Of a stretch of DNA of 64,000 bases, positions 24,001 through 30,000 are shown in pieces. This DNA is from a bacterium (GTDB lineage: Bacteria; Patescibacteriota; Minisyncoccia; Phycocordibacterales; JAGLPS01): the NCBI GenBank assembly GCA_030690305.1, contig JAUYHB010000013.1, forward strand, positions 5,221-69,220, read 5' to 3'. The first letter of the stretch is position 1. The number at the start of each line of letters is the position of its first letter. Position numbers: made by a program.

Positions 24001-27000
24001 TATCCGGCGATGGAGCGGATGAACTCTTTATGGGGTACGGCTGGTATAACAAGCATATGAACCTTTCATGGAAAGCGCATACATTCGAAAAAATGTTTCT
24101 TAATCCTTTTGAGGGGTATGTACGCAATATTTCAATTTTTAGCCCGAGTGAAAGAAAAAGATTATGGGGACAAAATACTTATGTAAAAGAATTTCTTAAC
24201 TCGAGTGTAGGAAGGGAAAGTTTAAATTCGATCGAAAAAATAAATATCTATGATCTCACTACGTACCTTCCCGGACAGTTACTAACAAAAATCGACAGAA
24301 TGAGTATGATGCATTCTCTTGAAGTACGCTCTCCTTTTCTTGACCACACCCTCGCTCAATTTGTATACAATCTACCGATCAAATACAAGATGAATAGAAG
24401 TGAAAATAAGATAATTCTTAAAGATATCCTTGCTGAAAGCATGCCGAAAGAGTTTGTGTATCGTAAAAAACAGGGTTTTGGCGCTCCGGTTGAAGAATGG
24501 CTTAATACCCCCCGACTTAAGGGTTTGGTCCTTGAAAAACTCGGAGATAAAGCTTCGATATACTCTATCCTTAGAAAGGAAGAGGTCCAGAACATTGTCA
24601 GTTCCTTTTATAGCAAAGGTAAAAAGCTTCTGTATTATAAAGTATGGGTGCTTCTGTGTCTGGAGTTGTGGCTTGAGTCGCACATCGCAGATATCTCATC
24701 ATGATACACACGCTGTTACAGTACATTACTGCATATAAAAACAAGATTACGAACAAATTGTGGGGTGTGGTTTTTCTTTATACTAAGAAAAAGAAAAAAG
24801 GCACAGTGCTCATAGCTTACATCACAGGCCCTTTTACGCTTGCCCCCGGAGAATATTTTACCGATCCTCATTCAAATTATTGGGTTACAGCCGAAATGGC
24901 CCGTATATTTCTAGAACGAGGATACGATGTTGACGTTATTAACTGGAACAATGTCGCATACAAACCAAGAAAACATTACGCGTGCGTTCTTGACATAGAT
25001 AAGAATCTGGAAGGATGGAAACCGTTTCTAAGTAAGGATTGCGTGAAAATATATTTTATCAACGGATCATATTGGAAATTCCAGAATGAAGCCGAACAGA
25101 AAAGGCTACTTGCATTGCAGAAACGCCGTGGGGTACTACTTTCTTCCCACAGAAACGTATCATTTTCAAAAAATACAGAACTTGCTGATTTTATTGCCGG
25201 CTATGGCAATAGCACGGTTCATGGGACTTTTCCGGTTCCCGAGGGAAAAATTATTCCCCTTCCAGTTCCGGCAATGGATACGTATGATTTCCCAGAAAAT
25301 AAGGACTTCGAGAAGGCGCGAACACATTTTCTTTGGTTCGGCGGTGGTGGGGCAATGCTAAAAGGTCTTGACCTTGTGCTTGAAGCATTCGCCGCCCTTC
25401 CCCATCTCAAGCTTTCAATAATAGGCCCTGCAGCATTTGAAAAAGAGTTTGAGGAAACATATGCAAAAGAACTGGCTCTTCCCAATATCATCCGCTACAG
25501 CCGCCCCAAGATTCAAAAAGATGGGACGATCACAACCGACGGGATAGATATTCGTGACATTCTTAATCAATGTGGGGCCGTCGTATACGTGTCAGCCTCT
25601 GAAGGAGGAGGTGGGGCAGTAGTACATGCGATGCAGGCCGGTATTTTCCCTATCGTTAGTCCTAACACAGGAATCAGTGAAAAAGCTCCGAGCAAAGTAT
25701 TGTCTGGTCCTACAATCGAAAATATCCATGCGGCCGTTCAAGAATTCTCACAACTCTCACCAGAAAAAATAAAACAACTCTCCAAAGAAGTATGGCGATT
25801 TGCTCAAAAATATCACACCAAGAAATCTTTCACTGAAGCGTTTGAGAACCTTGTAGATAACATTGTTAAGCTCAAATAAAGGGTATTAAACCCCTTTGTT
25901 GCCGTCTCTCGTTCGGGAGTGAAAAAAGAAGATACTTTTTTCACTCCGCTCACTCGCTAGGCAATAAAAGCTCGATACCCTTTATTTCCACGATTGTATT
26001 GCTTCTATAGCAGAGTCAATTTCCTCGTCTGTAAGTTTTAAAGAGGATGGGAGCCACAGCCCGCGGTTAGAATAAGAAAAATCTTGCGTGCTGTCTCCGT
26101 GAATTTTGTAATGGGAAAAGGGTTTTTGGGTTGTAATCACGGGATACATTTTCCTTGTGCCAATGCCCTTTTCTGCCAAATGAGCAGCTAATCCCTCCCT
26201 GTCGTCCACATATGCGTCCACAAACCACGGTGTTCCCGTATGAGGCCGCATCATTTCCGAAAGAGAGTCGTAATATTTTTTGTATATTTCAGTTTTTCTT
26301 TTAAGCCTTAATTCGATCTCCTCAAGCTGGTTCAACATAAACTGAGCCTGTATGTCTGTAAATTTAAAGTTATATCCTATAGAGTCATGCTCATCTCCTC
26401 CACCAAACTCCCGCCCAAAGTTTTTCAATTTCCTCACGTTTTTTGCTATTTCATCATCATTGGTAACTATACATCCCCCATTACCCGCCGATATTATTTT
26501 GTGTGGAGAAAAAGAGAAACAGCCGACTTTGCCGAAAGTCCCTAGATATTTGCCGTTATGTTTTGAACCGAATGACTGACATGCGTCTTCTATAATATGC
26601 AAGCGAGGATGTGCAGTGACAACATCTTCAATCCCGCAATCCCTGCCATTTAAAGAGACGTGGACATACGCATCGAGACCTTCAGGGATCTCATTATTTG
26701 AAACGAATGAAATTTCCGCTCCCGCCAATTCCGCAGCAGTAGCGGTTGCTATCATGGTAAGAGAGGGTATGCCGACTTTTTTTACACCTAACGCTTTAAG
26801 GGCCAAAAATATCGCAACAGTTCCGGAACTGACCATGACGCAATGCTTTACGCCTAGAAATTCCGCTATAGTCTTTTCTACTCTTTCCGTTATTTTAAAT
26901 TCTGCACCCAAGCCGTCGAGATCGTACTGGGGTATCTTTATAGTCATAACAATATTTTATCGTCCTCGTGAGGACCATTTTTGAACTCATAGAACGCAGC

Positions 27001-30000
27001 ATCCTTCAGTACTTCAATCTTATAGCCTCCATCCGCCAAAAAAAGACACTGCCCGGCAGACACTTCATATGCTCCTACATCTTTACCCTCTCTTTCACAT
27101 ACCGTTATGAGCAGCTTTCCTTCCGTGACAACAATAGCTTCCTGTAAATCAGGGATTGACCTGTCAATTGCCGAGTGGGTGTGTTTGGCAAACACGTGTC
27201 CAACTTTTCTTCTCATCATGAGAAGCTGCAGAGACCATTTTGAGTCAGTGATTGGGTGTGTGCCATCCTGTATGTCGGAATTGTCGACGAGAAGTGCTAC
27301 TATCTTATTTCCTGATTTTATTTCAGTTATCATAGGTATTAGTTATCGTATGGATGTTCCAAATCATAATCAACCATCTTGTGAACAATATCCACAAATT
27401 TCATCTTTGGTTTCCATCCAAGAGCTTTCTTTATTTTTGAGGCGTTTCCGAGCAACAAAGGCACTTCGTTGGGCCGTTTGTATTTGTCATCAATTTTTAC
27501 GTAATCTTTCCAATTAAGCCCAACATAGGAAAACGCTTCTTCCAAAAATTCCTTTATAGTGTGGGTTTCGCCAGTCGCAACAACATACACATCAGGCTTT
27601 TCCTGTTGCATGATAAGGTAAATCGCTTCCACAAATTCAGGGGACCATCCCCAGTCCCGTTTTGCGTCCAAATTACCGAGAAGAAGTTCGTCCTGCAGCC
27701 CCTTTTTGATTCGAGCTACAGCACGTGTCACTTTTTTTGTAACAAAAGTACCCCCCCTTCTCGGGCTCTCATGATTGAACAGTATTCCTGTAGTGGCAAA
27801 GAGACCATATCCATCGCGGTATTGTCTTGTAAGATGGTAAGCGGCAAGTTTTGCTACTCCGTAAGGACTCTGAGGCATCATAGGAGTCTTTTCATCGTAT
27901 GGGGCAGGAACACCCGGCACACCGAACATTTCCGAGCTTGATGCTTGATAAAATTTGGTATGCGGAGACAGTTTGCGAATCGCCTCAAGCACATTGAGTA
28001 CTCCGACAGTATTTGTTTCAAGAGTATATTGAGGCACTTCAAATGAGACTTTGACATGAGACATCGCTCCGAGATTGTAAAATTCATCGGGCTGAATTTC
28101 CGATACCAGGGATGAAATAGAGGGGCTGTCGGTTAGGTCCCCGTGGTATGTGTGAAAATTTTTATTTACGTATAGATGATCTATCCGGCCTGAAGCGAAA
28201 GAAGAAAGACGGCGCATTATTCCGTGCACTTCGTATCCTTTCGATAACAGAAGCTCAGCCAAGTAGGAACCATCCTGGCCTGTAACTCCAGATATAACTG
28301 CCTTCTTTATGCTTTTTCTGCTTTTATTTTTCATCCTTTTTGCATCCTGATATTTAGCTTAAATTCTAACTTTAGCACAGATTTTTTATAAAAAATCCGA
28401 AATAATATTGACTAATCTTAACTTTAGTGATATAATTAACGTTAGAAATTGAATCTTTGTTGCAGATAATATAACCAGATGGTATAAGGAGGAAAGCGTA
28501 AAATGGAAAAATTTGACACTTCCACACTTAAAAGCGTCGGCAAAGACGTTTTCATAAGCCCCCTCGTTTCTATTGTTCGCCCGGAGCTTGTAGTACTCGG
28601 AAATCACATCTCTATTGACCCGTGGTTCCATTGCACTACTGCCCTTGAGATTGGTGATCACGTTCATATCCAAGCTCAAGTTGGTATCATCGGCGGAAAA
28701 ACAGGAATTCTCAAAATGGGAAATTTCACAAATATTTCCATCAAGGGAACCATCATCTGTGTTTCAGAAAAGTTCTACGGCAAAGGTCTTATTGCCACCC
28801 CGGGTATCCCTGAGAAGTTCTTGGATGAATACAAAACAGGCCCCGTGATTTTTGAAGACTTTGTCAACACAGGAGCTAACGTCACTGTACTTCCGGGAAT
28901 CACTCTTGCCGAAGGATCGGTTATTGGTGCATGTTCTCTGGTTACCAAAAATACCGAACCGTGGACAATATACGCAGGTATACCAGCCCGTCCTATCGGG
29001 ACTATCGGCAATCGCCCGAAAGAAAAAATGCTCCAATATGCTAAAGAAATGGGCTACCGCTAAAGTGGTTTAGCCAAGAAGTTCCAAGCGGGGTTAACCT
29101 ACACAGGTTAACCCCGCTTATCTTATATTAAAGCCAAATATGATAAAATTTTGCGTATGAAAGAAATATCCCTCTCTTACCTTATGGTTACGAAAAACAA
29201 GCTACCCTACTTCAAGGAATCGATCCAAAAGCTTATAAAAGAAAAAAAAGAAGATGAGGAAATACTGGTAGCTGACGGCGGAAGTTCCGACGGCACAGGA
29301 AAGTTTCTTTTTGATCTTAAAGAACGCGGAATGATAGACTACTGCGTGTCTGAACCCGACTTTGGTGAAGCCCACGCCCTCAACAAGCTTTCATTTGCGG
29401 CAAAAGGCAAGCTCATCACTATAGTTACTGATGATGACGTCTTTCATTATCCGACCATACGGGCCATGAAGGAGTTTATGCGGAAGCATCCTGAAATCGA
29501 TATGGTAGGTCCTAATGGTGGTTTTAAGAATAGTGATACGACAAAATCAGTTCGTCCATTTTACTATGAAGACAATTATAGAGAGTGGCAAAAAAACCAC
29601 ACCCCCTTCGCATTCTGCTGCCTTGCTCTTGTATATCGGCGCTCTTCCCTCTCATTACTGGGGCTTTGGAATCCGGCATTTAAAAAGCTGGACGCTGAAT
29701 TCTCTCTTCGCAATACTTCTGGAAAAGCCAACGTTGCATGGTACACGGGACATGCGTATGTAAATATAAGCACTCCGCAAAGCACAAGCCTTGTTTATAT
29801 GAAAAGAATCAAAGACGAGACCGATTTTTTGGATAAATTTTATCTCGGAAAAAATCCAGATCCTTTTGTAATAGAAAAATTCAAAGTTCTTAGAAACAAA
29901 TTACGGAGCGGGTCTTTTTTTAAACAGAAACAGTCTCCCATCGCCATGGAAGAAAAACGGCCAAAACTGGTTACAATAGCCGAAGAATGGTTGGAAAAAA

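Follow-up and report, generated by a model that had tools for sequence, protein, structure and literature searches.

A Gmd-cupin-aminotransferase module with a divergent WbuC-like cupin in a Patescibacteria genome, predicted to make a GDP-linked N-acylated amino-6-deoxyhexose

Introduction

Two gene logics are known for the nucleotide-activated amino-6-deoxy sugars that resemble the system considered here, namely a dehydratase, cupin, aminotransferase and N-acyltransferase for sugars linked to deoxythymidine diphosphate (dTDP), and a cupin-free set of Gmd, Per and PerB for sugars linked to guanosine diphosphate (GDP). In this study a stretch of 64,000 nucleotides from contig JAUYHB010000013.1 (positions 5,221 to 69,220; hereafter the window, in whose own numbering all coordinates are given) was analyzed. 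The window originates from a metagenome-assembled genome of Patescibacteria, that is, the candidate phyla radiation (CPR), and between positions 25982 and 29063 it encodes a GDP-mannose 4,6-dehydratase (Gmd2), a small cupin and a Per-like aminotransferase on one strand and a left-handed beta-helix (LbH) N-acyltransferase on the other. The best explanation of this four-gene module is that it supplies the glycan cluster around it with a GDP-linked N-acylated amino-6-deoxyhexose.

In the route to dTDP-3-acylamido-3,6-dideoxyhexoses, RmlB is followed by the cupin 3,4-ketoisomerase FdtA or QdtA, by the aminotransferase FdtB or QdtB, and by either the N-acetyltransferase FdtC or QdtC or an N-formyltransferase (QdtF, FdtF or WlaRD). 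A 4,6-dehydratase, a cupin of about 130 amino acids (aa), a DegT aminotransferase and an LbH N-acyl- or N-formyltransferase thus make up the logic of these dTDP Fdt/Qdt pathways. In the window, however, the nucleotide is GDP (through Gmd) and not dTDP, the cupin is of the WbuC lineage with no detectable relation to FdtA (PF05523), and the LbH protein is AntD-like rather than QdtC/FdtC-like. The GDP-perosamine route and its N-acetyl and N-formyl variants (Gmd, Per/RfbE, PerB or WbkC) share with the window the Gmd start, the Per-like aminotransferase and the N-acylation. That route needs no cupin, whereas the window has one, together with an aminotransferase of a shortened clade and an LbH protein that fails the PerB-type model.

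The same chemistry as that proposed below, from a 4-keto through a 3-keto sugar to a C3 amine, is attributed to the GDP-mycosamine pathway of the polyenes, which uses the Gmd enzymes AmphDIII or NysDIII and the aminotransferases AmphDII or NysDII (PMC8944477). The polyene clusters have no known isomerase gene and the step is taken to occur spontaneously, whereas in the window a cupin gene stands between those of Gmd and the aminotransferase. The polyene system belongs to actinomycetes, while the system of the window occurs in CPR bacteria and DPANN archaea, where its N-acylated product would serve a surface glycan. A 3,4-ketoisomerase acting on GDP-4-keto-6-deoxymannose is not known, and in vitro reconstitution of GDP-mycosamine from Gmd and the synthase has not been achieved (PMC8944477). 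This agrees with the initial annotation of the region, which stated that no such enzyme had been firmly assigned, and nothing relevant on a GDP-sugar ketoisomerase was found in the literature that we searched.

Gene identities in the module

Gmd2 (27339–28334, minus strand; 331 aa) is the first gene of the operon and a short-form GDP-mannose 4,6-dehydratase, scoring 434.7 bits on TIGR01472, above the equivalog cutoff of 415, and matching PF16363 at E = 7e-124. The motifs GVTGQDG (residue 16), SSSE (132), YGVAK (158) and HESPRRG (188) are all present, which we take to be the Gly-rich NADP-binding motif, the catalytic S-E/YxxxK residues and the RR GDP-binding motif of established Gmd enzymes. 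From these matches we strongly infer that Gmd2 converts GDP-D-mannose to GDP-4-keto-6-deoxy-D-mannose. The window holds another Gmd (Gmd1; 14148–15380, plus strand; 572.6 bits on TIGR01472) with Fcl as the next gene, and at 51% identity between the two Gmd2 is a true second paralogue.

The aminotransferase (25982–26947, minus strand; 321 aa) is a short Lys-type DegT/Per-like enzyme dependent on pyridoxal 5'-phosphate (PLP), and matches PF01041 at E = 3e-58 (198 bits). Its best matches in the PDB are 7b0m (6e-39), an uncharacterised sugar aminotransferase for which no relevant paper was found in the literature searched, and the Caulobacter GDP-perosamine synthase 3bn1 (2e-31). K150 aligns with the Schiff-base PLP lysine of GDP-perosamine synthase, and this residue and D121 show no variation among 17 orthologues (318–327 aa, plus one open reading frame (ORF) called at 357 aa). 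The enzyme is a member of a shortened clade (318–327 aa), for which about 70 clusters reach at least 54% identity; the closest relatives of normal length share only 42–47%. We strongly infer that it aminates a keto carbon of the sugar, a grade that covers the chemistry and not the position. A choice between C3 and C4 from aminotransferase similarity was rejected, as the perosamine and mycosamine synthases of the polyenes are 69–73% identical and have no discriminating motif (PMC8944477).

The LbH protein (28503–29063, plus strand; 186 aa), which has a Hexapep match in Pfam, is divergent from the trio. Its best PDB match is AntD (the 3vbi series, 3VBI–3VBP; PMC6031040), the dTDP-4-amino-4,6-dideoxyglucose N-acyltransferase of Bacillus cereus, and the match is effectively full-length (E = 4e-26 over residues 10–169 of 186), though the nucleotide is dTDP there and presumably GDP here. 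Other PDB matches are WlbB (8e-9), QdtC (6e-5) and PglD (8e-3). A Glu of the LbH protein aligns with the Asp that is mutated in AntD variant structures. Against TIGR03570, the NeuD/PglB/VioB model that covers the PerB/PglD type, only 39.2 bits were obtained, with a cutoff of 160.8, and only over residues 113–163. The protein is predicted to be an AntD-like nucleotide-sugar N-acyltransferase and not a PerB/PglD-like one.

The gene identities and the operon picture drawn in the initial annotation hold, with the ORFs at the stated coordinates, including a second and divergent Gmd and an aminotransferase of the Lys type. It had also described 4-nt overlaps along the operon. Such an overlap was found at the cupin/aminotransferase junction (ATGA, 26944–26947), but Gmd2 and the cupin are separated in the window by a 5-nt spacer (27334–27338), where most relatives have a 4-nt overlap.

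Conservation of the module

The locus counts given here were obtained by calling ORFs ourselves and labelling them with phmmer, and they include loci that duplicate one another. The order Gmd-cupin-aminotransferase is kept in about 20 related loci, mostly with 4-nt overlaps. For cupins of at least 57% identity (L001–L008, L018–L031), Gmd lies immediately upstream and the short aminotransferase immediately downstream wherever flanks exist. An LbH orthologue is divergent from the operon in 15 loci, and in L003 a Formyl_trans_N protein is found upstream instead. The same gene order persists at 51% (L009) and 36% (L032/L033) cupin identity, and L032 carries a co-directional LbH gene whose product is strongly similar to that of the window. 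Since the cupin has 57 homologues of constant length (49–93% identity) and the gene order recurs in so many loci, the four-gene set is real and lies far beyond chance.

At 25–36% identity, WbuC-like cupins still occur beside Gmd and Per-like aminotransferases (L032, L016, L094, L095). Among the outgroup Per-like aminotransferases, a WbuC-like cupin is in the operon in L094 and L095, and L093 alone, with Gmd and a related aminotransferase, is without a cupin. In L092, where the aminotransferase is 50% identical to that of the window, a 122-aa cupin (2595–2963) unrelated to the window's lies exactly between Gmd and the aminotransferase; WbuC-like profiles give no match to it, a weak Cupin_2 match being all that was obtained, and this cupin may have come in as a non-orthologous substitute.

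Both the place of the cupin in the operon and the strictness of its coupling to the neighbouring genes point to an action on the Gmd product ahead of transamination. Because the trio is retained in every close locus and has an LbH (15 loci) or formyltransferase (L003) partner, because WbuC-like cupins recur in the same company at low identity, and because an unrelated cupin fills the same slot in L092, it is likely that the product of Gmd is the substrate of the cupin and that transamination and N-acylation follow.

A larger set of cupin relatives, at 24–43% identity and in many cases from marine metagenomes and DPANN archaea, has other partners. A second operon type (L010–L015, L017, L034–L090; also the context of P0056) is widespread in marine metagenomes, CPR bacteria and DPANN archaea, examples being L088:3818–7978 and L014:5980–9882. 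It combines a WbuC-like cupin having the canonical H104 with a sugar C-methyltransferase of the TylC3/NovU type (PF08421, PF08484), a short-chain dehydrogenase/reductase (SDR) of small size, Gmd, a DegT protein of only about 197 aa, and a second small cupin (PF14667, Cupin_2 and weak FdtA matches; motif RGNHYHK). Such operons probably make a GDP-linked branched-chain 6-deoxy sugar. An assignment of the second cupin as CapF-like was dropped, as no CapF was found in the PDB and the PF14667, Cupin_2 and FdtA matches are weak; hhalign of the two cupin families gave a probability of 20%, with only generic motifs aligned. Gmd is the common denominator of the WbuC-like cupin family.

Close homologues of the cupin and the aminotransferase (P0022/P0273, L007/L008, L012, L013, L016, L017) carry very different taxonomic labels, comprising Patescibacteria, metagenome-assembled genomes labelled 'uncultured Gammaproteobacteria', a Nitrososphaera-labelled contig of 1.5 kb, Woesearchaeota and Nanoarchaeota. 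This mixture suggests either that the genes moved horizontally among episymbionts or that contigs were mis-binned.

Family, fold and conserved residues of the cupin

The cupin (26944–27333, minus strand; 129 aa) is present in NCBI at 100% identity as 'hypothetical protein [Patescibacteria group bacterium]'. It gives no Pfam or NCBIfam match at E ≤ 0.01 and no Pfam match even at E ≤ 1. Its sole match is TIGR04366, the WbuC family cupin fold metalloprotein model, at 13.7 bits (E = 0.042; cutoff 42). The same model is matched at E ≤ 0.01 by 62 of 63 sampled relatives detected by profile, mostly below its cutoff, which was passed by one of nine individually scored relatives (the L012 protein, 46.6 bits). 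A profile search of 1.84 billion representatives returned 1,849 clusters at E ≤ 1e-3, each cluster being defined at 50% identity. Searches of the PDB (phmmer at E ≤ 10, and the profiles A1 and A2) found seed-storage globulins and generic cupins only. In the longer family members (P0180, P0179 and others), which were scanned for informative fusions, the extra regions have no Pfam match.

The initial annotation had left the choice between the FdtA/QdtA and WbuC families to profile and structure comparison, and the result is a place at the periphery of WbuC and no FdtA/QdtA match. Judged from these comparisons the cupin is predicted to be a divergent, peripheral WbuC-family protein outside the FdtA/QdtA family. 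It has H51, H53, E65, K118, G120 and P121 in common with the WbuC family, the only model that it touches, but scores below the cutoff and has the fourth His (H104) replaced. No functional study of WbuC was found in the literature searched, where the name is mainly an annotation label next to mcr-9 and blaCTX-M.

An AlphaFold2 model built from an alignment of 34 homologues is an all-beta cupin barrel with a mean predicted local distance difference test score of 93.2, a small single-domain fold similar to solved ketoisomerases. Its closest folds are ketoisomerases and epimerases of nucleoside diphosphate (NDP) sugars, at template modelling scores of about 0.5, although no match in the Foldseek search of the PDB fell below E = 0.015. 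With its 129 aa the cupin is nearer in length to the ketoisomerase chains (132–148 aa) than to the RmlC-type epimerases (174–200 aa). Compared with RmlC, WbcA, DdahB, MlghB and Cj1430 it is shorter by about 50 residues, matches no family model and does not conserve the His/Tyr pair.

H51, H53, G72, K118, G120 and P121 are invariant in both cupin alignments, of 34 close and 63 distant relatives, and E65, Q36, E116 and D125 are nearly so. H51, H53 and E65 fit cupin motif 1, with H51-T-H53 as the HxH pair. Position 104 is His in 56 of the 63 broader relatives, Tyr in the window cupin, and Tyr, Phe or Ile across the window-type clade. In the broad family H51, H53, E65 and H104 could thus form a four-ligand metal site. 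Relative to the relatives linked to C-methyltransferases, the window-type clade has also changed Y79 to Cys and gained K50, H46 and H26, a remodelling of the site that suggests a change of chemistry. The idea that loss of H104 tracks linkage to an aminotransferase was ruled out, as H104 is retained in L016, L079, L094 and L095 although their operons include an aminotransferase; the correlation is confined to the window-type clade.

Proposed pathway and its alternatives

In the proposed pathway Gmd2 would convert GDP-D-mannose to its 4-keto-6-deoxy derivative, and the WbuC-like cupin would take this product through a C3–C4 enediol(ate), with the H51/H53 pair and possibly E65 and K118 carrying out the chemistry. 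In the favoured outcome the carbonyl would move to C3 to give a GDP-3-keto-6-deoxyhexose; in the other, reprotonation on the opposite face would amount to epimerisation. Following a shift of the carbonyl, the Per-like aminotransferase would aminate C3 to a GDP-3-amino-3,6-dideoxyhexose of the mycosamine type, and the amine would be N-acylated by the AntD-like LbH protein or, in some relatives, by the N-formyltransferase. Both catalytic outcomes would lead to a GDP-amino sugar that is new.

That the cupin is a GDP-4-keto-6-deoxymannose 3,4-ketoisomerase is slightly favoured and is put forward tentatively, at somewhat below even chance. The initial annotation had raised this function, with a GDP-3-amino-3,6-dideoxyhexose as product, for the case of an FdtA/QdtA-like cupin; the function stays plausible, the kinship does not. 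Several lines of evidence argue for it. The dTDP Fdt/Qdt pathways have the same gene logic, a ketoisomerase is the top fold match of the model, and the chain has the size of a ketoisomerase and not that of an RmlC-type epimerase. The HxH pair is invariant, and the subfamily has no conserved Tyr that could serve as the RmlC-type acid, position 104 being variable. The L003 formyltransferase has its best matches in the 3-N-formyltransferases QdtF and WlaRD, with the GDP-perosamine enzyme WbkC close behind. Moreover, no reconstitution of GDP-mycosamine from Gmd and the synthase alone has been reported, and a GDP ketoisomerase is not known (PMC8944477). On this basis the cupin may found a dedicated GDP-4-keto-6-deoxy-D-mannose 3,4-ketoisomerase family, derived from WbuC-type metal cupins independently of FdtA/QdtA, a proposal that we hold with the same reserve.

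Other observations weigh against a ketoisomerase. The cupin does not match PF05523, the FdtA/QdtA family, even at E ≤ 1, and PDB searches with its sequence and with its profile retrieve no ketoisomerase chain. Its family tie is to WbuC, which has no established function. The HxH pair is also the generic motif-1 pair of cupins and aligns with the HxH of an unrelated cupin family too. Finally, the partners of the cupin and of its distant relatives lean towards a different reaction. The best characterised relative of the aminotransferase, GDP-perosamine synthase, is a C4 enzyme, AntD as the closest solved relative of the LbH protein acylates a C4 amine, and distant members of the cupin family adjoin TylC3/NovU-type C-methyltransferases and SDR reductases. 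Cupin epimerases work beside C-methyltransferases in the mycarose and noviose pathways, TylK and NovW being the precedents.

These same features suit a cupin that acts as a C3, C5 or C3/C5 epimerase of GDP-4-keto-6-deoxy-D-mannose, with amination then at C4, and to this we give roughly one chance in three. This would yield a GDP-4-acylamido-4,6-dideoxyhexose different from perosamine, with, for instance, the altro, gulo or L-galacto configuration. Against the cupin model, epimerase folds come close to the top ketoisomerase in score, and cupin epimerases of GDP-4-keto sugars are known in DdahB and MlghB (PMC7949155). An epimerase is nevertheless disfavoured by the shortness of the chain, by the missing Tyr acid and by the lack of an RmlC family-model match in Pfam or NCBIfam. 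The remodelled site of the window-type clade (H104 to Tyr, Phe or Ile, Y79 to Cys, and the gained K50, H46 and H26) suggests a reaction different from that of the C-methyltransferase-linked relatives, and the formyltransferase partner looks 3-N-specific. Reading the position of the amine from the acyltransferase partners was given up, since the LbH protein is nearest to AntD (C4) and the L003 formyltransferase nearest to QdtF and WlaRD (C3).

The primary proposal of the initial annotation, GDP-N-acetylperosamine made by Gmd, Per and PerB, fared less well. In an ordinary GDP-N-acyl-perosamine route, with a Per-like C4 aminotransferase and an N-acyltransferase, the cupin would leave the sugar skeleton unchanged and serve as a chaperone or channelling partner, as a regulator, or as an enzyme on another substrate. 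The aminotransferase similarity to GDP-perosamine synthase is compatible with such a route, as are the JGI label 'perosamine synthetase' on the aminotransferase orthologues, the cupin-free outgroup locus L093, and the loss in the window-type clade of H104, in the WbuC family the putative fourth of the canonical metal ligands. However, in essentially all close loci the cupin gene is enclosed by those of Gmd and the aminotransferase with stop and start codons that overlap, a set of its polar residues is invariant across a family of about 1,850 clusters, its fold neighbours are cupins that modify NDP-sugars, and a non-homologous cupin takes the same slot in L092. Because the LbH protein is AntD-like and not PerB-like, and because a strictly co-conserved and translationally coupled cupin would be left without a role, plain GDP-N-acetylperosamine is unlikely.

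Least probable is that Gmd2 and the cupin act on another GDP-sugar, such as the GDP-D-glycero-D-manno-heptose of Campylobacter capsule pathways, to give an amino-deoxyheptose: Gmd homologues include the heptose 4,6-dehydratases, cupin epimerases take part in GDP-heptose pathways (PMC7949155), and Gmd2 is a paralogue separate from the Fcl-paired Gmd1, but Gmd2 passes the Gmd equivalog cutoff and no GmhA, HddA or HddC-type gene is among the approximately 40 ORFs scanned out of those in the window.

Transcription signals and surrounding gene cluster

The sigma70-consensus promoter that the initial annotation had placed before the LbH gene was recovered at 28408–28436 (plus strand) as a sigma-70-like consensus match, TTGACT-17-TATAAT with an upstream TG, which agrees at 11 of 12 positions; no better site lies in 25800–29250. 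A terminator-like hairpin with a 15-bp stem (8 GC pairs) followed by a T-rich tail lies 3' of the gene at 29086–29119 (plus strand). With an extended -10 near-consensus promoter and a strong hairpin, the LbH gene looks monocistronic, unlike the remaining cluster, which is densely packed with overlapping genes. On the operon side a weak promoter-like match (TTTATA-18-TAGAAT, 9 of 12 positions; 28363–28392, minus strand) could serve the gmd2-cupin-aminotransferase operon, such sites numbering 16 in the region where 6.9 are expected. Between the convergent aminotransferase gene and that of a family 4 glycosyltransferase (GT4), an inverted repeat was read from the sequence at 25916–25947 (GGAGTGAAAAAAG-6 nt-CTTTTTTCACTCC), which is likely a bidirectional terminator.

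An AsnB-type glutamine amidotransferase of 589 aa and the GT4 glycosyltransferase (22935–25879, plus strand) flank the trio here, and do so in most window-type loci (L001, L004–L008). One may speculate that the AsnB-type protein acts on the N-acyl sugar, perhaps converting it to an acetamidino derivative in the way of WbpG and LfnA.

A further DegT protein of the window (20866–22050, plus strand; 394 aa) carries His (FSFFVAHHMS) where the PLP lysine would be and has RfbH as its best NCBIfam match, on account of which it looks like a ColD/E1-type 3-dehydratase. Together with Gmd1 and Fcl (14148–16305, plus strand) and two GT11-like transferases, the cluster may make a colitose-type 3,6-dideoxy sugar besides fucose. 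At 14148–14363 the mechanically called Gmd1 ORF of 410 aa runs over the start of a minus-strand ORF of 792 aa, and the Gmd profile match begins only at residue 62; the true start is therefore probably an internal Met at about residues 46–52.

A dTDP-rhamnose gene set is located at 39629–43491 (minus strand) and comprises a nucleotidyltransferase (NTP transferase; 238 aa), RmlB (358 aa) and a 682-aa protein of which the N-terminal 270 residues or so are RmlD-like, the rest being a long and unexplained C-terminal extension. A carbamoyltransferase is encoded at 37160–39043, and three ORFs without a Pfam match lie at 33736–37227.

Conclusions

Overall, we present a functional bioinformatics analysis of a four-gene module of a CPR bacterium whose proteins are small, soluble enzymes, so that the hypothesis is directly testable in vitro. 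GDP-mycosamine is the sugar of amphotericin and nystatin, and the cupin is a candidate for the isomerase activity missing from its pathway. If the ketoisomerase function proves true, CPR bacteria and DPANN archaea would gain a mycosamine-type GDP-3-acylamido-3,6-dideoxyhexose route; if the cupin is an epimerase instead, it would open the way to a new GDP-4-amino sugar. Part of the large WbuC-like family would obtain its first substrate class, the products of Gmd, and the result would indicate that CPR and DPANN organisms, with their reduced genomes, spend resources on surface sugars of an unusual, GDP-derived kind.

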